Source: a virus
Taxonomy: Duplodnaviria; Caudoviricetes
Length of the DNA stretch: 39,604 nucleotides
IMG/VR virus record: IMGVR_UViG_3300042339_000036
Span: 1 to 39,604 of that record
Reading direction: 5' to 3' (one strand)
The notes beneath the pieces are model-generated. The model was not told the DNA's origin and did not search any database. It saw nothing but the letters and a program-made list of their open reading frames with translations. Both the position numbers and the translations under genes were made by a program. Of the stretch, positions 6,158 to 27,551 are shown in pieces (positions within the stretch are counted from its first letter, which is position 1; every line of letters begins with the position of its first letter).

Positions 6158-6337
6158 ATGGCAGACATTAGCATCCACAACACCAAGTCAATCGTCATCA
6201 GCGAAGTTCGCGAGATCAATGGCAACACTCCGCTGTACACGAGAGACATCACCATCACCGACGCCCGTGGCCACGAGGTCATCATTACTTGCTTTTCAAC
6301 CAGCGAGGAAGCTGAAGAATTGCGGGTGATGCTGTGA
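6158..6337 (+). CDS. 59-aa hypothetical protein (MADISIHNTKSIVISEVRE...; not in ORF track)
   Basis: AAGGAG RBS; stop overlaps the GTG of the next gene. Confidence 0.7.
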   Translation: MADISIHNTKSIVISEVREINGNTPLYTRDITITDARGHEVIITCFSTSEEAEELRVML

Positions 6338-6597
6338 AGCGCAACAGCTACATCGCCGAGATCGAGCACCGCGTGTGCGGCATCCCTTGCATCGTCGGCG
6401 TCACCGATTACGAGGGCTACTCGCCAGCGTATACCTCTGGCTTACCTGAGAACTGCTACCCGGCAGAAGGTGGGTCAGGGGACTTTGAGATCCTGGACCG
6501 CAAAGGCTACCGCGCCAAGTGGCTTGAGAAAAAACTCACAGCGCGAGATGAGGACGCGATCCAGGAATTGATTTATGAACACATGGAGAATAATTGA
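6334..6597 (+). CDS. Hypothetical phage protein
   Basis: PENCYPAEGG..FEILDRKGYRAKWLEKKL; coupled overlaps. Confidence 0.7.
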   Translation: MKRNSYIAEIEHRVCGIPCIVGVTDYEGYSPAYTSGLPENCYPAEGGSGDFEILDRKGYRAKWLEKKLTARDEDAIQELIYEHMENN

Positions 6598-7547
6598 TGA
6601 CTATTCAAAGAATCGAAATTGAGAGTGAAAAGCAGTGGCTTGCCGAGCGGGCCAAGGATGTGACCAGCACCGAGGTGTCGGCCTTGTTTGGCCTGTCGCC
6701 TTACTTGACTGAGTTTGAACTGTTCCACCAAAAGCGCGACGGCGTGACCGTCAAGTTCGAACCCAACGAGCGCATGAAGTGGGGCAACCGCCTGGAGTCG
6801 GCCATCGCGCACGGCGCCGCCGAAGACATGGGTTGGAATATTGCCAAGTTCAATGTGTACATGCGCGACCAGGCCGCACGAATTGGGTCCAGCTTTGACT
6901 TTGAGATCAAGTCCAGCGCCAATGGCCCGGGCATTCTCGAGGTTAAGAATGTCGACTGGGTGCAATATCAGAAGTCATGGATCGACGACGGCAACGGCAA
7001 CATCGAGGCGCCCGAGCACATCGAGTTGCAGGTCCAGCATCAAATGGAAATTGCCGACTACAACTGGTGCGCAATTGTGGCCCTTGTTGGCGGAAATGAG
7101 CAAAAGATAGTCCTCCGAAATCGCGATCGGGACATTGGTAAAAGTATACGCGAACGCACCAGCGAGTTCTGGAATCTTGTGCAAGCCAATACCGCGCCAT
7201 CAGCCGACTACACCAGGGACGCCGAGTTCATCATCAAGCAATTGCGCAATGGCGCCGACGAAGGTTTGGTGGCCGAGGCCGATGCTGAACTTGAAGACAT
7301 GATCAAGCAGTTTGAGTTTGTGCGCAGAGAGGCCAGCGATCTGGACAAGATCAAGGACCAGAAACGCGCAGAGATCCTAGAGCGCATTGGCCGCGCCAGC
7401 AAAGTTTTAACCAGTTTTGGCTCGCTATCGACGGGGCAAGTCAAAGGCCGATCAGGCACTCTCATCACACCTGAGATGGTCGGCACAGTCATCGGCGCAA
7501 CCGAGGGCTACCGCAGTTTCCGTTTTTATTCAAAGAAGGAGAAGTAA
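6594..7547 (+). CDS. YqaJ/lambda-exonuclease-family recombination nuclease
   Basis: WLAER..STEVSALFGLSPY..WGNRLE..SSFDF..LEVKN..LQVQHQM motifs; upstream of recT. Confidence 0.9.
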   Translation: MMTIQRIEIESEKQWLAERAKDVTSTEVSALFGLSPYLTEFELFHQKRDGVTVKFEPNERMKWGNRLESAIAHGAAEDMGWNIAKFNVYMRDQAARIGSSFDFEIKSSANGPGILEVKNVDWVQYQKSWIDDGNGNIEAPEHIELQVQHQMEIADYNWCAIVALVGGNEQKIVLRNRDRDIGKSIRERTSEFWNLVQANTAPSADYTRDAEFIIKQLRNGADEGLVAEADAELEDMIKQFEFVRREASDLDKIKDQKRAEILERIGRASKVLTSFGSLSTGQVKGRSGTLITPEMVGTVIGATEGYRSFRFYSKKEK

Positions 7548-15897: not shown

Positions 15898-18800
15898 TTA
15901 CTGTCTCGACGATTCACTTGCTTTGCCAGTGGCAAGGCCGCGAATGTAGTCGGCAGAAGAGGTTGGTTCAATCTTCCCGCGCTCGACTTCAATGGCATAA
16001 CCAATAGGTCTGCCGAGCACGGTAACGGGGATGCCGGTCACAAGGCTGATCAATGTCAGGATGTCTCGGACATTCTTGCCCGTCACATCCTTGTCAGGAT
16101 CTGCAATGTTGATACCGGCTTTTACTACACCGATGGTCGCACCTTCCAGCGTCGATACAGACGGGCTGGTGGTCATGCGGTCATCGTATGGCTTGTTGTT
16201 GAAGGCGTTGAATGGCACGATTGCCGCAGAGCCAAACGGCACCAGGGCAACAGCACCACGCAATTGTGACCCAAGGAACCAACTCATGAAGACATCGAGG
16301 TAGCCGTCGTCATCATCGTCGTCCCAGCCGCCACCCAGACTGCGCACGATGGCGTCAGCGGCCAGCATTGGCAAGCCAAAGCCGAGCAGGTAGGTCATGA
16401 ACAGCTTGCCCTTGTGGCCACGCCATCCAAGGTCACGGAAGATCTTGATGTACTCGTTGGCGTTCAGGTTGGCCATCATGTTGAAGTAGCCATAGAACTG
16501 AATCAGCGTCTTGTAGAACGGCGATCCGACTTCAAAGGCAGACAAGTCTTCAGGCAACAAGCTAGATTGCGTCATACGCACTGCGGCGTCTGCTCGCTTG
16601 ATTGCCTCATTGCTTGCTGACTTTTCATCAACATTGGCGCCAAGATCTGTGACGGTTTGGTTGTACGCGCCAACCCAGGTCACGATGTCCACAAAGTTTT
16701 GGAAAGCCTGTTGCAAAAAGTAGCCATGCTTGTTGGACCACTTCTGGATCTTGTCAAACTTCGTTGGGTTGATCAGCAGGTCATTCATCATGTCCTGCAC
16801 TTCGATCATCTGATTGCTCATGCGGTCAGCCATGAACGGCGACAACTCAGCAACAAACTCAGCTTGCGCTGTTGGACTCTTCATGTAGTCGACCAGGGCC
16901 GTCTTCATGTACTTGCCTTCAACCTTGAGCAATGCAGGGAAGAAACCAGTCACCTGTTGCAATGCGTTGGTGATGTTGGCAAACATGATGCCGATACCAG
17001 TGCGAGTGCGAACAGCACGCCAGAAGTTGTCGACGCTTCGGTTCATGCCGACCTCGCTCGTGATCTGGCGAGCAGATCGATTGAGCCATGGCAAGATCAT
17101 GTCCTCGATCACAGTCGGATCGATTCGGGTGATCGTGTCTGCAAAGTCACGCTTGCGAATGATCTTGAGTGTGTCGCGGATCGTAGGCTGTACGCGTGCA
17201 AAGCGAATCACATCATCGATGTGCTTGGCCATCACGCGGATGTCCAAAGATAGAGGCTTGTTGTATTCGACGCGAGACTTCGTAAACCCGGCGCCAGTGC
17301 TTGGCATCGAGTTCCGGAAGTCGGACTCGAGTTCCTCCATCTTCATTTGACGCTGTGCGTCGCGAACTATGAACGGGTCAGTCTTCGCCGGAACATAGCC
17401 ACCACGGTATGTGCCAAACGGTGTAACCACAGGTCGCGATTCGACTTCCTTAAAATAGTAGCCGAAAATCTCGCGATGCGCCTCTTGCGCCATAGGCTTG
17501 AGTTCTTCATTTAGATCCCATACAGCTTGCACAAAGTCGAAGTCTGCTTTGGTCAGCACGCCTTCGTCGATCATGCGGTTCATAAAACTATTCCAGCGCG
17601 TCGTGTCGACAGAGCCGTCTTCATTGATCTGCCCCCAGCCACGGCCAGCAATTAATTTCTTCATGTTGCTGTCGTTGCCAATGTGCATCAATGCACCAAG
17701 CACCTCTGCTTTACCGATGCCACCGTTCTCATTGCCGAATGTGTAGTTCAGTTCAGGTGCAGTGATCTTTTGCACTGGCAGGTCCAGCTTGCCGATCATG
17801 TCCACATAGTCTTTGACATAGCGGTTGCGATCGACGCGGTACTGGTCAAGAGCCGCACGCAGTGGGCGCCAGATGTAATTGGTGAATGGACCAGGGCCAC
17901 CAGGGCCGTCTGTTGCGTCAGCCCAGTGCTCGACCTTGCGGGTCAATGCCTTGGCGTTGTACAAAGCGCGGATGGCTTTTTCTTTTGGACCAGGCGCCAT
18001 GCGTTCACCGGCAACCTCTTCAGGCACACCGATCTCGTCAAGTCGCGCATTCAGTTCGGCAATGATCGAATCAAGAGCAACTGCTTTGCCCTCAATCATC
18101 ACTTCGTTTTCACGCTTGGACTGGTACCACAGCGCATCGACAATTTCCTTCATCTGACGGAATTCGTTGAGCGTGAGTTTTTTGTAGTTGCGCGGGCCAC
18201 CAGTTGACTCAAGCAAGATCGGCTCGATGTCTGCGTACAGGTCTGGGTTGTAGGACTTGAGTTGCTCCACAAACTTTGCTGGGTCGACATCACGCGGGCC
18301 AAGGCCGTAGTGGCCAAGGATGTAGCGTGCGGCGTTGACCAGGTCAATGTTGCGGTTCTTGGCCATCTTCGCATCGGCCTTAAAGATCTTGGCAAAGCTA
18401 TCAATAGCCTTGTCAATTTCCTTGCGTGCGTTGACTGCCTCGAGCGACAACTGATTGTTCAGCAATTGATTCTGTTTGGCCTTTGCGGCTTCAGTAGTTT
18501 TGCCAGCCTTTGATGCCTTGATGCTTTCTTTCGATGCGCGGGCTTCTGCCAGCGTGTAGTCACGCGGACGGATCTCGCTGATTACCTTGTTGCCAATGAT
18601 TGATTTGGCCGCAGTCTTTGCGGCTTGAATCATCAAGCGTGCAGGCTGTGTTGCCTTGGCCAGGTAGCGCAACTCGACGGCCACAAAGCGGGCGCGTGCT
18701 TCGTTGTGCAATGCCTTTTGGATTTCCAACTCAATGCTGGCAGGGTCCATTAAGTCAGAGAATTCAGCCATCATGCGTTCATCAGTGCGGCCATCAATCT

Positions 18801-21800
18801 CTTCTTTGATTGGCTTGGCCTCGAGCAATGAGCGGACCAACTGGTCGCCAGAATCAAAGCCAAACATCGATGCCACCAGGTCAGGCGGCAAACCGTCTTC
18901 AGCCAGCATGCCGTACTTGCCATAACCAAGTTTGGTCAGGTCAGGCGCAGGTGTCAGCGACTCTTTGCTTTCTGGGTACAGCGCTTTGACATCGGCGATT
19001 TTGAGTTTGTGGCCAGTCAGCGCTTGTATGTCTTGGCCGTTTTCATCTTTGGTGATGCCGCGCTTCAAGAATTCCATGGCCAGGTAGACGCGGTCCTCTT
19101 GAACCTCTGCGGCCACTTCTTCGCGCACGCCCTTGCGGGTGTCGGCAGTCTTTGCCTGCATCTCTTTGAGTACGCGAGAACGAGCATTGCCCAGCCACTT
19201 CAATTGGCGCAGGCTTGCCTGTGTCAACTCCGTAATTGATGCCTCTGTAGCTTCAGCCATCATTGCCTGGTAAGCGGCCCACTCTTCGTTAGGCATGCCG
19301 GACTCTTCTTGGCTCTGGTACATCGGCACCATGCTGTTGACTGCTTCGGACTGCTTGATCTGCTCTTCGCTGGCCAGCATCCGGTCCATAACCTGGCGGA
19401 CTTCGCCGGTCAGGATTGGCAGGTCTTCGCCGTTTTCTTGGCGATAGATCTGATTGAGTTCGTCGCGAATCGATTTGTAGACGCGGCGCAACCAGGCGCT
19501 AAATCGCTCAAACATCGATTGCATTTGCAGGCTTGGTGCTTTGCCTTCAAACAAATAGATTTCGTAGTTGTATGCCCATGACTCGTGGTACTTGCGTTGC
19601 TCATCAAGAGACAGCGCGTTCCAGGTGGCCAGGTCTTTGATGCCAAACCAATCAAGAATGGTCTGCATGTCTTCTTTGTTTTGCGCGGTCGCGTCTGGCC
19701 GTGCGGCCATGTCAGCGTAAACCGTCAGGAAGAAGTGGGCAGTCTCATGCAGGAAGGTGGACATATCCGCCTTCTCGTTGAGGATTGTGGTCAATCGTTT
19801 CGGATCGAACCCACCGCGTTCTGGTTGACGGAATATTTGAGCCTGCGCCGCTGGCGGGAAAAACTTGGCTATAGCTTCAGCATCGGCATCGTCAAAAGTC
19901 AGCGTGCCAGAGCGCAGGTCAGCGGATGGTGCCGCCGCCTTGATTTGAGCCTCCTGGGCCTCGAATTTACGGATCTCAGGGGTGAGCATCGCGTACTTGC
20001 GTTTGGTGCTTGCAGGCGTCGTATAGGCGCCCTGTGATGGCATTGAGTGCATGCCATGCTGTTCGACTGGCACCTTGGTGTGTGTTGGCCCCAAAAGCAC
20101 AGCAACGCCCTGGTCACCGCCAGCGCCTGGGATGTAGACGCCATCGAACCCGGCATCAATGATTGCGGCCTCTACATCGTTGAACCATTTACCTGCGTCG
20201 TCACGGCCACCGGTTGATGCTTGGGCACGGATGCCCAGCGGGTCAGCCGACGCGTCGTAAAGGTTGTCCAAGTAAATGGCGTGGACATTACCGCCAACGC
20301 CAGCCTCTGGCCTGATGCCATTGCCGGTGTCGACATAGAAGTGAACTCGGTTGGCCAGGCGAGGATCTCCACCTGCCAAGCGGCCAGCTTCAGCGCCTTT
20401 TAAGCCTGTGTCGTAGGCGAATCCGGTAAGACTGCTTCGAGGTTCTTTTGAATAGTGGATACCAAGGACTGAAGTTGCTCCATCCCTGGCTGTCCCGTAT
20501 CGCTGGGTAACATCGAGATCGCTTGCTCGTAGGCGTTGAACGCCGCCTGCTCCGGTTCCTGATTGGGCAAAGACTGCGGGTTTTCCATTATCTTCTCTCC
20601 TTTTTTTGTTGCGCTTTACAGCGCGGTTTTGATCTGCAACAGCGTCGTCATAGGTCTTGGACTTCTTGCCGTCGCTGATCTTGTGCCAACCGTAGTACGA
20701 CTGGTCCAAGGCCATAAAGACAACATTCGGCTCGCCGTTGTTGAAGTCTTTAAATGCTTCCTTGCTCCAGCCTTCTGGCGCCTGGGTGTTATCCCAGGGT
20801 AAACGCGAAGCCGCAACAAATCCATGCGCGGCGTAGAACTCAGGCAGGATCGTCTCAAATGCATCCAGCTTGGTACCACCTGCGGCCACGGCCAACTCCA
20901 TGACAGAGCGGCCAGCGCCAGCCTGCGAGAACACTGAGACGATGTCGCCGTCAGGTTTGACTGCCACACCGGACAGGCCGTCTTCAGCCAAGAACAGGCG
21001 CATGCCTTGGTATTCCTCGACTGGGTAGACGAAGACAGCCGCGCCCATGTCGCCACTGGCTTGCTTGCTGGCCGTGATGGATTCAGAGAATCGTTGTGCA
21101 TTCTGTGCGTTGCCTTGCTCCAACTCGTAGAACTTGGGCACCTTGATACCGTTGTTGCGGTACACGCGGGCCAGGCCTGCGCCTGCTTTCCATTCTTGAG
21201 AGTAGGTGACAAGTTGGCTTTTTAGAACCCGAACTTTTCCGCCATCTCCACTGCTTTTTGCCGTGTAAGACCAGGATTGTTTTTGATCGCCGCTTCGATT
21301 GGATCTTGCAATTCTGGTTGCGACTGCGCCTGCAAAGAGCCGTTTTTCTCTTTGAGTAAAGCCTCCAGCTTCTGCTTGCTCCCCTCCAGCGACCTGCGCT
21401 TGCTCATCTTGTAATCGTGTTCGTCTTGCGCGTTCATCTTTAGACTCCTTCTTCAATGCATTGTTGATCTTGCGATCGGAAACACCCAAGGTACGCGCAA
21501 CACCTGCGGCGGCGTTGGCGTAGTCTGGGGCATCTTCATCACTATACCCGTCTGTTGACTCTTGGTCAACATTATTGTCCTTGGCTGATTCGTAGAGTCT
21601 TTTCTCTGCGTACCAGAGCACGGCTTGCAAATCGGCCATGGTCAGGTCAGCATAGGCTGGATCAGCCTGCAACTCAGCCAGGATCTGGGCAAAGACAGAG
21701 CGGATGTAGGTGCGCTCGTGAGGGCCAGCCGGTGCTTCCTTTTGGCCGTCGTTGTACTTGGCCAGGCTGTTTCCCGCCTTGCGGACTTCCTCGCCGACCT

Positions 21801-24800
21801 TGGACTCGTTCATCTGCTCGCGCAGTTTGGGGTCCATGGAGGCCTTCTGAATGGCATCAGCCAGGCGATTGACCTCGGTGTTGGCAATGTCCAACCCAAT
21901 AACTTTAGACAGGGCTGTAGCCTGTTCTGGGGTTGCGCTACGGATCGCTGAGTTCAGGCGGTTGGTTGCCGTTTCCACATGCTTGGGCAGGCTCTTAATG
22001 AGCGTGCCGGTCCACCGGCCCCAAGTGCGGACCAGCCAGCGGTCCATCGTCAGGGAAGTGAAATCGCCATACAGGTTGGAGAAAAAGCCGTTGCCGATCT
22101 TTGGACCAATGATGGCCGCGCCCTTGACCGTAGTGTCTGCGTGCTCACCGCCTGGCTTGAGGTCTTTGCTGATTGCGCTGATCTCGCCCACGGTGAAGTT
22201 GGTTTGCATGAACTGGCGCAAGTTCTTGATGCCCCAGGCTCCGACCAATTCGTTGAACAGGGCAAGCGAATCATTGATCGCGCCCTGGGCCTGGCCACCT
22301 TTGATGTTGGTGGGCATGACCTTGTTTTCTTTGTAGTAGCTGTACGCCTTCTCAGCCAGTTCAAAGTTCTTGTCGACCTTCAAGCCGTTGGATGTGACGG
22401 CCAGCGCCCAGGTGAATGCAAAGCGTGCGTCTTCGTTGGTTGCAATCTCTGGGTGGACCAGCGCCATGACGGCCAGCGCCTGGCGTGTCTTTTCGTCGTA
22501 CCAGCCGATTGCGTTGGGGTTTTGCTCAAGCGCAAACAATGCGTCCTTGACGCCCACGCGCACCAGGTAGTCAGTAGTCTGTGGAGACGGCACTGACACA
22601 TCGACACCGGCCTCAGTCGCGGCCTGTTGCACTGCGGTCTGGATGGCCAGCTTGAGGTCACGACCTTTGTTCCACACCTGGCTTTTGGCCACCTCGAGCG
22701 CGTTCTTGAGTTCGGCCTGGTCTTCGACAGCCTCGGGGATGTCAGCTTGCGCCTCGATCGCGGCCACATCGTCAGCCTCCGCATCCTCTTCGGAATTGAT
22801 TGCATCAGCGTCGGTCAAGGATTCAGTCTGCAACACTTGTCGACCTTGGCGCAGGATGTCTGCATTCTCACGCGACCAAGTGCCATCGTTAAATGGCGAC
22901 TTGACTGCGGCATTGTCAAACACGACGATCTCGCGTGCATCGGGCGCGACCTCCATGATCACGCCATCGTAGCCCTGGGCTTGCAGTTCAGCAGTAAATG
23001 CATCAGCGGCTTCGCGACCACCAGCACGAATGCGAGTCTTGTCCTCCATGGTGGCCATGTAAGGGTTCTCGAGTCGAGCATACAGCGGCATGACATTCTC
23101 ACCAGCAGTGCCGGTGCGGCGCTTTTGCATGGCATATATTTCGGCCATGTCGGCGCTGTCAGTCAGGTACACACCAGTGCCAAGCCATCCGCTGTCTTTG
23201 CGGTTTGGATTGTCAAGGTCAAACGCGGTCACATTGTCTGCGGTGCCGTGGTAAAGCGTTTGTGGTCTGCCGCTTTCGTCTTGAAAAATAGACGAGCCAA
23301 ACCAGTTGCGGAATGGCACGCTGTCAGTGATCACGCGCTGGTCTTGATTGAACAGCGCCATGCCACCAGGCTGGCCTTCTGCTCGCTCGACGCGGTACAT
23401 GTAGCGGTTGTAGAACTCTGTCGGCATGATCTTGAGTGCCGCTGATTGGGTCACCACAAAGTCACGCACAAGTTGTGCATTGATTCGTGCCGCGTTGTCG
23501 GTGTACTGCTTGGTCGCTTTGACCTGTTGGTACATCAGATTCTCAACCTCACGCGCAGACTTCACAAAGTCCTTGTTGGTCATCTCGACTTTGGCGTTGG
23601 CCTCCATCTGAGTCTTCATGATCTCAGCCTGGTTGTCGATAAACTCGCGTGCCTCGCGGCGTGTCATCATCTCACCTTCAATGCGCAAGTCGTCAATCAG
23701 CGCGGTGCTGAACTCGGTCGGTGCAATGTTGGTTTGGTACTCGGTCACAGGGATGGCAATGTCGCCACCAGTTGCAATGGCTGTGTCAAGTTGCTCGCGC
23801 ACGGATGGCGATACTTCAGCCACACGCTCGGCCAATCCAGATTGCTTGAGCGTTTCGCCGCTGATGTAAACCGTGGTGACATCAGTCTCTTGCGATACTT
23901 GACCGATCCAATCATTAAATGTTTCTGCACTGCGTGCGCGTACTTTGCTGGCGCGGGAAAACTCTTGCACCTTTTCAAATGCTTTGGCACTGCGTTCGGC
24001 AGACTCAGCTTGCAACATGGTGCCGCGATAGTTGCCAGGCACCTCGACCAATGCGGTTGGGATCTCTGCGAATGCCTCGAGCAAAATCTCACCTGGCTTA
24101 AACTCATCGGTCAACGCTTGGGCTGTTGCTTCACCAGCGGCGCCGCCTGCGGCCTGCACAGCGCCTTCACCAACCACACGAGTGCCAACACTCAACACAG
24201 TAGGGCGTGCGCCTTTAAGTAATTTGCCAGCTATGCCAGCAGTCAATGCGTCAAACAATGCAATTGGCACACCGCGCTTAATTCCTTTTTCGCGTGCTTC
24301 ATTCATTATTTTTTCATCAGTAAGCACACGGTAAAGCGCGTCTGATGTGTTTATTTTTTCGGCTTGAGATGTAATAACCTCATCCATCGTAGTTGCATAT
24401 TCGATCAAAAAACTTGTCGTACCTGCGGCAGTAGCCACAGCCAATGGACCCATAGGAATTGAAGCGGCAGTAACTGCTAGGCCTGGTGCGCCGACACCAA
24501 TCGATTCAAAAATAACTTCTTTGACTGCGGCAGGGTTGCGAATGATTGCAGAAAAACCTTCGCTAAAATTTGTAGCTTCGCCAATTTCTTGAAGACCGCG
24601 CTGAATATTTTCAGGGACAGGAAATTTTTCAACACCTCGTTGGTAATTGTCGAGACTAATTTTTTGCTGAATTTTTGGATCGTATGTGATGCCGTTGGCT
24701 TCAGCCGCCGCTCTTTGTTGATTTTGCAATCCCTTAATTATTGGGGTGTCTGCAAGACCTAATGCAAACGCTTTTTTAAATTTTGCGTAGCCACGCTGAA

Positions 24801-25227
24801 GTGGTTCAGTAATCTCGTCTAGGAATGACCGCTCAATCGGTTTGATCGTGCCGTATTCACGCTCGATGCCAGCCAGGTTAGTAGAGTCGTCGTGTGAAAT
24901 CTTGGCGTTGTTTGGATTGCTTAACCACTGGCCAAGCAACGGCGAGCGCTTGAGCGTTTCGTCGAACTCATTGAGTTGCACAGTGCGGTTGACCTGCGCG
25001 TAGTTGCGCTGGACGATGTCGACAGGTACGCCAGACTTGTTTGATAAATTCTTTGCGCGTGCGGCTTCATCCGGATTGGAATCGAGAGCGCCATACAGGC
25101 TGGTGCGCAGTTGCGTGCGCTGGCCATCGATTACATTGGCGGCGGCTTCATCAAGTGTCGGTGCTTTTTTTACACCAGCAACTCGTTGGGCGGCGGCATC
25201 AAATTCATCATCAGGTACTAGCATCAT
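15898..25227 (-). CDS. Giant polyvalent internal virion (ejection) protein: ADP-ribosyltransferase-like, HhH-glycosylase-like, GNAT-like, second ART-like and HExxH metallopeptidase domains
   Basis: T7 gp16-equivalent position; FRNWFG..YHGT..GVYLT..GYDGV..EIVVF (about 22850-23320); GWY..GPKIG..TMDRW..QAVLWY (about 21590-22520); KPDGDIVSVFS..KLDAF..FYAAHGF (about 20640-21100); HYS..HFY..GFDGVY (about 20090-20470); HETAH at 19735-19749. Confidence 0.85.
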   Translation of the reverse strand: MMLVPDDEFDAAAQRVAGVKKAPTLDEAAANVIDGQRTQLRTSLYGALDSNPDEAARAKNLSNKSGVPVDIVQRNYAQVNRTVQLNEFDETLKRSPLLGQWLSNPNNAKISHDDSTNLAGIEREYGTIKPIERSFLDEITEPLQRGYAKFKKAFALGLADTPIIKGLQNQQRAAAEANGITYDPKIQQKISLDNYQRGVEKFPVPENIQRGLQEIGEATNFSEGFSAIIRNPAAVKEVIFESIGVGAPGLAVTAASIPMGPLAVATAAGTTSFLIEYATTMDEVITSQAEKINTSDALYRVLTDEKIMNEAREKGIKRGVPIALFDALTAGIAGKLLKGARPTVLSVGTRVVGEGAVQAAGGAAGEATAQALTDEFKPGEILLEAFAEIPTALVEVPGNYRGTMLQAESAERSAKAFEKVQEFSRASKVRARSAETFNDWIGQVSQETDVTTVYISGETLKQSGLAERVAEVSPSVREQLDTAIATGGDIAIPVTEYQTNIAPTEFSTALIDDLRIEGEMMTRREAREFIDNQAEIMKTQMEANAKVEMTNKDFVKSAREVENLMYQQVKATKQYTDNAARINAQLVRDFVVTQSAALKIMPTEFYNRYMYRVERAEGQPGGMALFNQDQRVITDSVPFRNWFGSSIFQDESGRPQTLYHGTADNVTAFDLDNPNRKDSGWLGTGVYLTDSADMAEIYAMQKRRTGTAGENVMPLYARLENPYMATMEDKTRIRAGGREAADAFTAELQAQGYDGVIMEVAPDAREIVVFDNAAVKSPFNDGTWSRENADILRQGRQVLQTESLTDADAINSEEDAEADDVAAIEAQADIPEAVEDQAELKNALEVAKSQVWNKGRDLKLAIQTAVQQAATEAGVDVSVPSPQTTDYLVRVGVKDALFALEQNPNAIGWYDEKTRQALAVMALVHPEIATNEDARFAFTWALAVTSNGLKVDKNFELAEKAYSYYKENKVMPTNIKGGQAQGAINDSLALFNELVGAWGIKNLRQFMQTNFTVGEISAISKDLKPGGEHADTTVKGAAIIGPKIGNGFFSNLYGDFTSLTMDRWLVRTWGRWTGTLIKSLPKHVETATNRLNSAIRSATPEQATALSKVIGLDIANTEVNRLADAIQKASMDPKLREQMNESKVGEEVRKAGNSLAKYNDGQKEAPAGPHERTYIRSVFAQILAELQADPAYADLTMADLQAVLWYAEKRLYESAKDNNVDQESTDGYSDEDAPDYANAAAGVARTLGVSDRKINNALKKESKDERARRTRLQDEQAQVAGGEQAEAGGFTQREKRLFAGAVATRIARSNRSGDQKQSWSYTAKSSGDGGKVRVLKSQLVTYSQEWKAGAGLARVYRNNGIKVPKFYELEQGNAQNAQRFSESITASKQASGDMGAAVFVYPVEEYQGMRLFLAEDGLSGVAVKPDGDIVSVFSQAGAGRSVMELAVAAGGTKLDAFETILPEFYAAHGFVAASRLPWDNTQAPEGWSKEAFKDFNNGEPNVVFMALDQSYYGWHKISDGKKSKTYDDAVADQNRAVKRNKKRREDNGKPAVFAQSGTGAGGVQRLRASDLDVTQRYGTARDGATSVLGIHYSKEPRSSLTGFAYDTGLKGAEAGRLAGGDPRLANRVHFYVDTGNGIRPEAGVGGNVHAIYLDNLYDASADPLGIRAQASTGGRDDAGKWFNDVEAAIIDAGFDGVYIPGAGGDQGVAVLLGPTHTKVPVEQHGMHSMPSQGAYTTPASTKRKYAMLTPEIRKFEAQEAQIKAAAPSADLRSGTLTFDDADAEAIAKFFPPAAQAQIFRQPERGGFDPKRLTTILNEKADMSTFLHETAHFFLTVYADMAARPDATAQNKEDMQTILDWFGIKDLATWNALSLDEQRKYHESWAYNYEIYLFEGKAPSLQMQSMFERFSAWLRRVYKSIRDELNQIYRQENGEDLPILTGEVRQVMDRMLASEEQIKQSEAVNSMVPMYQSQEESGMPNEEWAAYQAMMAEATEASITELTQASLRQLKWLGNARSRVLKEMQAKTADTRKGVREEVAAEVQEDRVYLAMEFLKRGITKDENGQDIQALTGHKLKIADVKALYPESKESLTPAPDLTKLGYGKYGMLAEDGLPPDLVASMFGFDSGDQLVRSLLEAKPIKEEIDGRTDERMMAEFSDLMDPASIELEIQKALHNEARARFVAVELRYLAKATQPARLMIQAAKTAAKSIIGNKVISEIRPRDYTLAEARASKESIKASKAGKTTEAAKAKQNQLLNNQLSLEAVNARKEIDKAIDSFAKIFKADAKMAKNRNIDLVNAARYILGHYGLGPRDVDPAKFVEQLKSYNPDLYADIEPILLESTGGPRNYKKLTLNEFRQMKEIVDALWYQSKRENEVMIEGKAVALDSIIAELNARLDEIGVPEEVAGERMAPGPKEKAIRALYNAKALTRKVEHWADATDGPGGPGPFTNYIWRPLRAALDQYRVDRNRYVKDYVDMIGKLDLPVQKITAPELNYTFGNENGGIGKAEVLGALMHIGNDSNMKKLIAGRGWGQINEDGSVDTTRWNSFMNRMIDEGVLTKADFDFVQAVWDLNEELKPMAQEAHREIFGYYFKEVESRPVVTPFGTYRGGYVPAKTDPFIVRDAQRQMKMEELESDFRNSMPSTGAGFTKSRVEYNKPLSLDIRVMAKHIDDVIRFARVQPTIRDTLKIIRKRDFADTITRIDPTVIEDMILPWLNRSARQITSEVGMNRSVDNFWRAVRTRTGIGIMFANITNALQQVTGFFPALLKVEGKYMKTALVDYMKSPTAQAEFVAELSPFMADRMSNQMIEVQDMMNDLLINPTKFDKIQKWSNKHGYFLQQAFQNFVDIVTWVGAYNQTVTDLGANVDEKSASNEAIKRADAAVRMTQSSLLPEDLSAFEVGSPFYKTLIQFYGYFNMMANLNANEYIKIFRDLGWRGHKGKLFMTYLLGFGLPMLAADAIVRSLGGGWDDDDDDGYLDVFMSWFLGSQLRGAVALVPFGSAAIVPFNAFNNKPYDDRMTTSPSVSTLEGATIGVVKAGINIADPDKDVTGKNVRDILTLISLVTGIPVTVLGRPIGYAIEVERGKIEPTSSADYIRGLATGKASESSRQ
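20400..20588 (-). CDS. Nested +1-frame small protein B (62 aa) inside the giant gene
   Basis: AAGGAG-agaagata-ATG; helical E/Q/L-rich composition unlike the P/R/S/W-rich shadow ORFs; starts in an inter-domain linker. Confidence 0.55.
   Translation of the reverse strand: MENPQSLPNQEPEQAAFNAYEQAISMLPSDTGQPGMEQLQSLVSTIQKNLEAVLPDSPTTQA
21222..21437 (-). CDS. Nested +1-frame small protein A (71 aa) inside the giant gene
   Basis: AAGGAG-tctaaag-ATG; amphipathic C-terminal DPIEAAIKNNPGLTRQKAVEMAEKFGF; occupies an inter-domain linker. Confidence 0.6.
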   Translation of the reverse strand: MNAQDEHDYKMSKRRSLEGSKQKLEALLKEKNGSLQAQSQPELQDPIEAAIKNNPGLTRQKAVEMAEKFGF

Positions 25228-26939: not shown

Positions 26940-27551
26940 TTATTCGAGGCCAAGACGGCTTGCTATGGCCGCAAGTTTGCGATCTTGGTACCAGGCATTG
27001 GCTACAGATCCAGCGCTACCTAGAATGCTTGTGCCAGCCGCTAGGAACGGGCTGATGGTTGAAGCAGAGCCTGCCAAGTTGGAAGCAGAAACATCCTGCA
27101 TTGTTGATGCGGTCAAATAGTTCTGGCGTTGCTGTCGAGCAGACTCGGCACTGCGTACGGTGTCTGCGTTGACCGTCAGCATATCGATCTCTTTCATGAG
27201 GTCCGTTGTTGCAATCGTCTCAACAGCACTGCCGACACCCAGGTCAATGCCTCGAGCGGCCATCGATGCACGCTGTGAACTCTTGATCTTGCCAGCACGC
27301 AAGCCAATCTGGCCTTGTCTTTGTTGGCCAGCACGCATGATCTGCTGGGCTGTAAATTCAGCCTGGGCCGCATTTAGTTCTGAGATGTCGGACTGGAATC
27401 GCATCGAGGATGCTTGTGAATCCAGTTGCGCCTTCTGGCTTTGGGCGGCGTAGTAGGAGCCAATTGCGCCAGTGACTGCTCCACCAATAGAAAAGATGGA
27501 GCCGAACTGGCTCATTGCCTGCGTCCCGGTTCCGGTCAATAAGGTTGCCAT
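26940..27551 (-). CDS. Internal virion (ejection) protein, T7 gp14-like
   Basis: Hydrophobic G/A/S-rich ends; QRASMAARGIDLGVGSA motif; AGGAG RBS. Confidence 0.75.
   Translation of the reverse strand: MATLLTGTGTQAMSQFGSIFSIGGAVTGAIGSYYAAQSQKAQLDSQASSMRFQSDISELNAAQAEFTAQQIMRAGQQRQGQIGLRAGKIKSSQRASMAARGIDLGVGSAVETIATTDLMKEIDMLTVNADTVRSAESARQQRQNYLTASTMQDVSASNLAGSASTISPFLAAGTSILGSAGSVANAWYQDRKLAAIASRLGLE

Follow-up and report, generated by a model that had tools for sequence, protein, structure and literature searches.

Two conserved genes nested out of frame in a giant polyvalent phage gene: candidate partners of the enzyme-like domains beside them

Results

A giant virion gene with several enzyme-like domains

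The window, meaning the whole 39,604-nt stretch of viral DNA analysed, has the appearance of a near-complete podovirus genome. It encodes terminase, portal, capsid, nozzle, an internal virion protein and a 3109-aa protein, and also has tail-fibre-like genes, lysis genes and a module for replication and RecET. The 30 ORFs scanned, which are a subset of those in the window, included no integrase, repressor or RNA polymerase. The giant gene (15898..25227, minus strand) is the third of the internal-virion block in a T7-like podovirus head-tail module. It comes after the portal, capsid, nozzle and internal virion genes, is followed by tail fibre-like genes, and has as its neighbour a gene for an internal virion protein (26940-27551, phrog_418). 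From this position, the giant protein is probably packaged in the virion.

Several conflict-related domains are combined in this one large protein: LPD22 and ART-PolyVal (both by Pfam), a domain of HhH-GPD fold, a GNAT-like domain and a HETAH motif at aa 1825-1831. On its sequence it fits the polyvalent proteins described by Iyer et al. (2017; PMC5512222), whose main text likewise presents giant multi-domain proteins of the virion block with LPD22, ART-PolyVal, GNAT-like and HExxH domains. According to the same text, polyvalent domains accreted from solo modules in phages and conjugative elements. A polyvalent gene of phage PTXU04 is reported to be needed for fitness (PMC11879866).

Three of the domains, all on the minus strand, adjoin the nested ORFs discussed below. 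The first (21463..22710, main-frame aa 840-1255) is helical and was modelled with confidence (pLDDT 88.5). Its best structural matches were HhH-GPD glycosylases (3n0u, rmsd 4.2 over 198 aligned residues, at a Z of 11.4, for which the tool still advises caution with helical models), and the top 23 structural rows were all such glycosylases or close kin, including gp46 of phage PaMx11; Foldseek with the same model returned nothing meaningful. The modelled domain thus appears to have an HhH-GPD glycosylase fold, with catalysis only predicted. The second (20593..21219, aa 1337-1545) resembles phrog_2563 and phage genes annotated as acetyltransferases, and has no Pfam match and no meaningful PDB match; its putative GNAT identity rests on the annotations of the matching phage genes. 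The third (19948..20505, aa 1575 onward) carries invariant His and Tyr motifs and was modelled at a pLDDT of 57, with MbcT, ParT and RES matched at E values of 0.09-0.7; its assignment to the ART/RES fold is a weak one. It is the second ART-like domain of the protein. Neither beside the first, ART-PolyVal (22891..23280, aa 650-779, by Pfam), nor beside the HExxH domain did ORF and synonymous-diversity scans reveal a nested gene. Profile searches of PDB sequences with the HhH domain, the GNAT-like domain and ORF A gave nothing meaningful.

ORFs A and B are selected genes in the +1 frame

ORF A (21222..21437, 71 aa) and ORF B (20400..20588, 62 aa) are both read from the minus strand, in the +1 frame relative to the 3109-aa ORF, each with an ATG preceded by a Shine-Dalgarno (SD) sequence AAGGAG, 7 nt upstream for A (21445..21450) and 8 nt upstream for B (20597..20602), exactly where the original prediction had placed them. 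The 9,330-nt giant gene contains no other AAGGAG hexamer. Of 3000 synonymous shuffles of its codons, none yielded a pair of out-of-frame ORFs that were 60 codons or longer and led by AAGGAG-ATG, and 236 yielded a single one; with AGGAG in place of AAGGAG, a pair was obtained in 11 of 3000.

Main-frame diversity at four-fold synonymous sites, taken across 35 close sequences, was 0.071 over A and 0.092 over B, compared with 0.340 elsewhere. None of 1427 other windows was as low as A and none of 1425 as low as B, making these the sole two troughs of the gene. Two other linkers (aa 790-835 and 1750-1810) showed no drop (0.41 and 0.35) and contain no nested gene. Other +1 ORFs bearing an SD within the giant gene, at 22940, 22769 and 21572, were unconserved and lacked a synonymous trough.

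Selection on the encoded peptide was also seen at greater distances. In 28 junctions less than 85% similar, identity was 43% in the +1 frame vs 38% in the main frame (50% vs 39% over the last 27 codons), and the +1 frame outscored the main frame in 287 of 378 pairs. The +1 start codon stayed at a constant place (ATG in 24, GTG in 4) and in-frame indels were tolerated; an SD match of at least 4 nt was present in 18 junctions, the other 10, mostly A-rich, having none. Over the last 27 codons the +1 identity was 0.48, where 0.17 would be expected from the main frame alone, and the main-frame identity 0.37, where 0.24 would be expected from the +1 frame alone. By these comparisons the stretches over A and B are dual-coding, with both frames constrained. 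The earlier proposal that the main frame becomes linker here, as expected if the overlapping frame carries the constraint, needs correction: the overlapping frame is constrained, but so is the main frame, and the stretches are not passenger linkers. ORF B does sit between the GNAT-like and second ART-like domains, but not in pure linker: its 3' half reaches into the beginning of the ART-like domain (GIHYS, main aa 1589, within the ORF B span of 1547-1609) and overlaps the first strand of that domain.

Each ORF has its own start, its own SD and an open frame under selection within another gene. At the level of sequence, these results demonstrate that A and B behave as two selected out-of-frame genes. 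Four of the 21 RNA runs listed were compared with the region and consisted entirely of contigs, which favour conserved stretches by selection and are uninformative on starts and translation. Re-initiation or frameshifting into the main frame at the stop of A was considered and set aside, there being no main-frame start codon or slippery run there. Neither product resembled a described immunity or antitoxin family (no Pfam match, PHROGs only at E ≥ 0.0086, no significant PDB match), and ESM Atlas matched them to unnamed clusters alone (0.90 for A, 0.77 for B).

Each nested module travels with a flanking domain

Homologues of each domain were collected from viral, metagenome and genome collections, keeping the best 80 per scan where more matched. 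The +1 frame was open and equipped with a correctly placed start and SD at 27/27 ART2 loci (those of the second ART-like domain), 73/87 GNAT loci and 50/59 HhH loci, compared with 9-13% of control windows; the loci are non-redundant and come from those best 80 per scan, but the homologues are related and the counts across loci are not independent. The +1 frame alone was open in all 173 loci, a set in which the GNAT and HhH loci overlap, against 43-44% of controls. The proposed homologue comparison of the +1 frame, start and SD thus came out in favour of conservation and of co-travel with the flanking domains.

Which domain each ORF belongs with had been left undecided between the upstream and the downstream neighbour. 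We addressed this with module profiles, those for ORF A being trained on junctions in which HhH precedes GNAT, and counted a score of at least 10 bits as a match. The C-terminal hairpin module of ORF A (residues 45-71, DPI...NPGLTR...FGF; 21225..21305, minus strand) was matched at 15 of 50 junctions in which another domain precedes GNAT, some of these other domains being probably divergent HhH relatives, and at 0 of 11 in which HhH precedes another domain (L378 was left out of this set as an HhH-GNAT junction); none of 4420 shuffles matched. The N-terminal part (residues 1-33; 21339..21437, minus strand) was matched at 1 of the 50 and 2 of the 11, and an ATG 7-14 codons past the HhH domain was kept in 10 of the 11. 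For ORF B, the helical core (residues 12-29, PEQAAFNAYEQAISMLPS; 20502..20555, minus strand) was matched at 8 of 31 junctions in which a domain other than GNAT precedes ART2, with no match in 930 shuffles. Its N-terminal extensions, judged by eye, vary with the upstream domain, and like extensions recur after the same upstream domain elsewhere (L041, L042, L110, L241 and L265).

The profiles miss most of the distant cases, 35 of the 50 peptides before GNAT and 23 of the 31 before ART2 scoring below 10 bits, so homology at those junctions rests on position; the equivalent place is occupied there by other short, mostly acidic ORFs. A few fused GNATs (L376, L377 and L425) have no convincing upstream gene.

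From these patterns, ORF A appears to be a fusion, its N-terminal part staying with the upstream HhH-like domain by its start position and its C-terminal part following the downstream GNAT-like domain, and the core of ORF B appears to follow the downstream ART-like domain. While the context varies, a small gene stays linked to a single effector domain, as in effector-immunity pairs. The junction comparisons show each domain and its particular out-of-frame module moving together as a cassette; the module lies just upstream of the GNAT-like and second ART-like domains and starts just downstream of the HhH-like domain. At the meeting point of two cassettes, a single small ORF combines both modules.

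The built-in immunity envisaged for these ORFs has gained from the conserved frame, start and SD, from the cassettes and from the pairing by comparison, but the mirror tree did not favour the hairpin-GNAT pairing. Across 52 junctions, in which the parts are linked and the module is only 27 aa long, the correlation of the C-terminal module was 0.47 with GNAT vs 0.59 ± 0.03 with length-matched HhH. This is the opposite of what a hairpin-GNAT pairing predicts, because the module tracks HhH better than GNAT. As a separate observation, linkage alone would make adjacent DNA travel together.

Searched at E ≤ 0.001, the C-terminal module profile matched 240 clusters at 50% identity. Of the 150 clusters listed, the majority are small proteins that end in the motif at their C-terminal side. 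The motif falls within no Pfam family; Pfam searches with 19 longer C-module proteins gave no family apart from two unrelated matches. The long matches P0039, P0090, P0129 and P0176 proved to be repeat look-alikes and were set aside.

Copies outside giant genes

Other proteins, too, have a +1 ORF that ends where their GNAT domain begins: the MuF-type minor capsid protein of Microbacterium phage Barnstormer (L039), and proteins whose GNAT is C-terminal from Rhodococcus, Nocardia, Terriglobales and Gastranaerophilales. At one locus (L360) two copies stand in tandem. At a bacterial locus (L361) the nested copy is stopped at codon 4 and two identical intact free copies lie downstream among small genes; in its relative L362 the nested copy is whole and the locus contains no free one. 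A broken nested copy accompanied by an intact free one suggests, from sequence, a protein that acts in trans. The doubling of the free copies could be an assembly repeat, but trans action is suggested even then, because one free copy suffices.

With an iterated C-module profile, copies from Nocardia (L375, 13.7 bits), L037, L453 and the free L361 copy (8.0 bits) scored above the best of 1370 shuffles (6.5 bits), and L362, L365 and L039 did not exceed that maximum. Homology of the actinobacterial and Gastranaerophilales peptides to ORF A is therefore weak. An archaeal-virus MuF-GNAT (L117) has, in place of a nested ORF, a small downstream gene in the position of an immunity gene. Three solo GNAT genes inspected by eye had no partner of the nested type, and GNAT activity therefore need not be toxic. 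Streptomyces gene 73, downstream of a solo GNAT, was considered as an ORF B homologue and showed no resemblance.

A conserved promoter-like site precedes ORF A

A candidate sigma70-like promoter (21541..21569, minus strand) lies inside the HhH-coding region, 104 nt before the ATG of ORF A, with a -35 TTGACC (21569-21564), a 17-nt spacer and a -10 TATAGT (21546-21541). It is the sole promoter-like match in 19500-23000, where 1.5 would be expected by chance, and is alone not significant. Scored with a weight matrix built from textbook values, it also ranks first across both strands of the entire window, at 14.1 bits. In the HhH model the site falls in a low-confidence acidic loop.

Its conservation was more informative. 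The site was identical in 27 of 29 close relatives, with a third-position diversity of 0.087 vs 0.17-0.28 nearby. In 49 distant loci the mean promoter score was 3.16 bits vs 0.03 ± 0.37 after synonymous recoding, and TTGAC at the 17-nt spacing occurred 10 times where 1.8 were expected; a score of at least 5 bits was reached in 25 of the 49, many homologues being without a strong match. In the 195 nt upstream of the nested starts, scores exceeded those of recoded sequences at junctions of HhH with GNAT (6.05 vs 4.26, n = 44), of other domains with GNAT (5.52 vs 3.59, n = 24) and of other domains with ART2 (7.69 vs 5.16, n = 25), in each case with 0 of 60 recoded replicates reaching the observed value. 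Nine control windows in domain bodies showed no promoter excess (differences of -0.96 to +0.20). Junctions of GNAT with ART2 (n = 3) had no excess upstream of the nested start, which fits ORF B sharing the transcript of ORF A; no minus-strand terminator-like site was found between the promoter-like site and the end of ORF B.

By these measures the promoter-like site is conserved beyond protein constraint. This suggests that synthesis of the nested peptides need not depend on the late giant mRNA and can probably take place soon after infection as well. The original prediction confined their action to the producing cell and should be revised accordingly, the conserved site suggesting their separate production.

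Discussion

We lean, on balance, towards reading ORFs A and B as conserved small +1 genes whose products bind the adjoining enzyme-like domains and switch them off. The peptides would arise soon after entry and would stay out of the virion. Transcription of A, and probably of B, separately from the late giant mRNA would be driven by a host-polymerase promoter within the HhH-coding region; peptides accumulating after DNA entry would end a burst of activity of the injected domains. Later, they would hold newly made giant protein quiet until packaging and, being left out of the virion, would leave the domains active again in the next host. By the genetic code, the +1 arrangement would allow the third positions of nested codons to be changed so as to avoid main-frame stops; because of this, a pair of partner and enzyme could become readable through into a polyprotein with the partner kept.

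The first alternative to be weighed is that the peptides are domain-specific chaperones or packaging or ejection helpers, acting on folding and packaging readiness and leaving catalysis unblocked. Cassette travel, trans action and the absence of a partner beside solo genes are explained equally well in this way, but such helpers would be needed only when the giant protein is made, which requires no separate host-type promoter, and other domains of the giant protein manage without a nested partner. We regard this as unlikely.

Slightly less probable again is that the peptides are independent early phage proteins, for example anti-defence proteins, housed in tolerant stretches, with the flanking domains untouched and the co-occurrence due to linkage. 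The mirror tree, which does not favour the C-terminal module with GNAT, would then be understandable, as would the divergence of same-position peptides past profile detection, and the internal promoter-like site fits early expression. Against it, the C-terminal module is absent from all 11 junctions at which HhH precedes another domain but reappears ahead of GNAT in host proteins that are unrelated and in different phyla, and the linkers at aa 790-835 and 1750-1810 house no nested gene.

The early type of expression would also suit peptides made just after entry as activating subunits, targeting adaptors or substrates that switch on or aim the injected domains. An activator in the new host accounts for separate expression as well as an inhibitor does, and cassette travel is likewise expected. 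We nevertheless doubt it more than the two preceding alternatives: solo GNAT genes work without a partner, the free duplicates downstream of a C-terminal GNAT in L361 resemble an immunity array, and production that awaits transcription would presumably delay an effector meant for entry. Very improbable is an origin of the constraint in RNA or DNA signals, or in translation acting in cis on the giant gene, with no functional protein made: the main frame is likewise constrained over A and B and the promoter-like site is nearby, but at 40-50% identity the amino-acid motifs persist, indels stay in frame and starts alternate between ATG and GTG, and free-standing copies occur.

Parts of the inhibitor reading have parallels. 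In type II toxin-antitoxin systems with GNAT or RES/ART toxins (AtaRT, MbcTA, ParST), a small helical partner is encoded just upstream of the toxin, as it is here just upstream of a GNAT- or ART-fold domain. Unlike those antitoxins, A and B have no antitoxin match in Pfam or PDB and no evident DNA-binding domain, and the enzyme is within a virion polyprotein. Same-strand, out-of-frame genes with their own ribosome-binding site are known from lambda Rz1 in Rz and from the nested genes of phiX174, and occur in embedded and separated forms; those are fixed pairs, whereas here many modules are shuffled with many domains in one giant gene.

In the V. cholerae T6SS (type VI secretion system), promoters of immunity genes are reported inside the effector genes (vasX/tsiV2, tseL/tsiV1 and vgrG-3/tsiV3; PMC3857813). 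There too, each effector domain has a small partner, and the in-effector promoter permits its separate expression; these immunity genes are the nearest tested precedent. As described in that source, the V. cholerae immunity gene follows the stop codon of its effector, whereas A and B are overprinted within a read-through polyprotein, and A and B modules may lie upstream or downstream of their domain and are fused with the neighbour's. The main text of PMC5512222 uses neither 'overlap' nor 'linker' and is not known to describe nested partner genes, of which the giant gene here has two. In a literature search that covered few subscription journals, we found no published description of nested genes within polyvalent proteins. 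Effector-partner cassettes are known in kind; their overprinted arrangement in a polyvalent gene appears to be an undescribed architecture.

A more general proposal, towards which we are nearly evenly disposed but slightly sceptical, is that polyvalent virion proteins carry a second coding layer, in which a domain is accompanied by an overprinted cognate inhibitor and often by an internal host-polymerase promoter. Modules would fuse on shuffling, and the layer would both time events after injection and give immunity to effectors that related phages inject. This could answer how a phage makes a giant enzyme-laden protein and yet spares the cell on which it still depends, and how domains get shuffled yet keep their control. 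A nested partner would mark the domains that probably need restraint and provide a partner for expressing them; if the proposal is true, a +1-frame reading of polyvalent genes would yield a catalogue of specific inhibitors for uncharacterised GNAT, ART and HhH enzymes. Gene callers omit such ORFs on long contigs, which leaves a family of at least 240 clusters (50% identity) nameless.

A cultured phage and host are available for direct tests. Among cultured phages the nearest is Limnohabitans phage DC33, with 89.7% identity over aa 810-1776 and Limnohabitans sp. DCL3 as host; it is reported to form clear plaques and to have a short tail and 52 ORFs (PMC12195039), in a paper whose main text contains no proteomics terms. 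Its record annotates the giant gene alone, leaving out the nested ORFs, and its genome retains every part, including the promoter-like site, ORF A and ORF B.

Nested +1 frames over whole domains and at domain boundaries

Overprinting in these giant genes extends beyond linkers, since in three of the homologous loci collected for comparison (L072, L073 and L076, about 6330-6740) a nested +1 ORF of 124–135 aa, located 3' of the HhH-like domain, spans the whole of a short ART-like domain that the main frame encodes. An unnamed domain beginning 'FEVAPDPND', which recurs in the giant proteins of L041, L042, L110, L239-L241 and L265, has its own family of +1 starts after it, often with a promoter-like site. 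In L037 (5941-6285 and beyond), another domain is inserted within the GNAT-like domain, and an additional +1 ORF lies at the insertion point.

The HhH domain is also found joined to ORF A, the nested +1 ORF at 21222-21437 (minus strand) of the window. In L065 (=L315), around position 1069, a deletion places the HhH domain in frame with the final two thirds of ORF A, and the protein terminates at the end of this fusion. A similar fusion of HhH and ORF A was found in P0103, a protein matching the profile of the ORF A C-terminal module. These fusions could be assembly errors or genuine truncations.

GNAT proteins and their neighbours in other genomes

Rhodococcus and Nocardia (L365, L369-L375) have proteins, 310–390 codons long, that end in a GNAT domain and whose genes contain a nested +1 ORF. 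Their gene neighbours look chromosomal, and the four proteins scanned from this set had no Pfam match.

Haloarcula tailed virus 2 (L461, 1177-2283) carries a solo GNAT gene followed immediately by a gene annotated as endonuclease III, an order echoing the HhH and GNAT pairing in the giant protein; the two may share a DNA-modifying pathway. In Methanobrevibacter virus vir075 (L117, 2929-3198), an 89-aa gene follows MuF-GNAT and overlaps its final 19 nt, which is the usual toxin-immunity layout; comparison of this gene with ORF A revealed no resemblance. In L361 (3090-4834), the small genes 3' of the C-terminal GNAT protein form an array that includes an approximately 1.1-kb repeat and has the appearance of an immunity array.

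A second promoter-like site and the classification of DC33

The second-best-scoring predicted promoter-like site within the giant gene, TTGAAC-17-TACATT (minus strand, about 15943-15971 of the window, −10 at 15948), lies immediately 5' of the downstream tail-fibre-like genes.

The record of Limnohabitans phage DC33 (L040, PQ492659.1), the closest cultured relative, places it in Inoviridae; its genes, together with the microscopy in its paper (PMC12195039), indicate a short-tailed phage.
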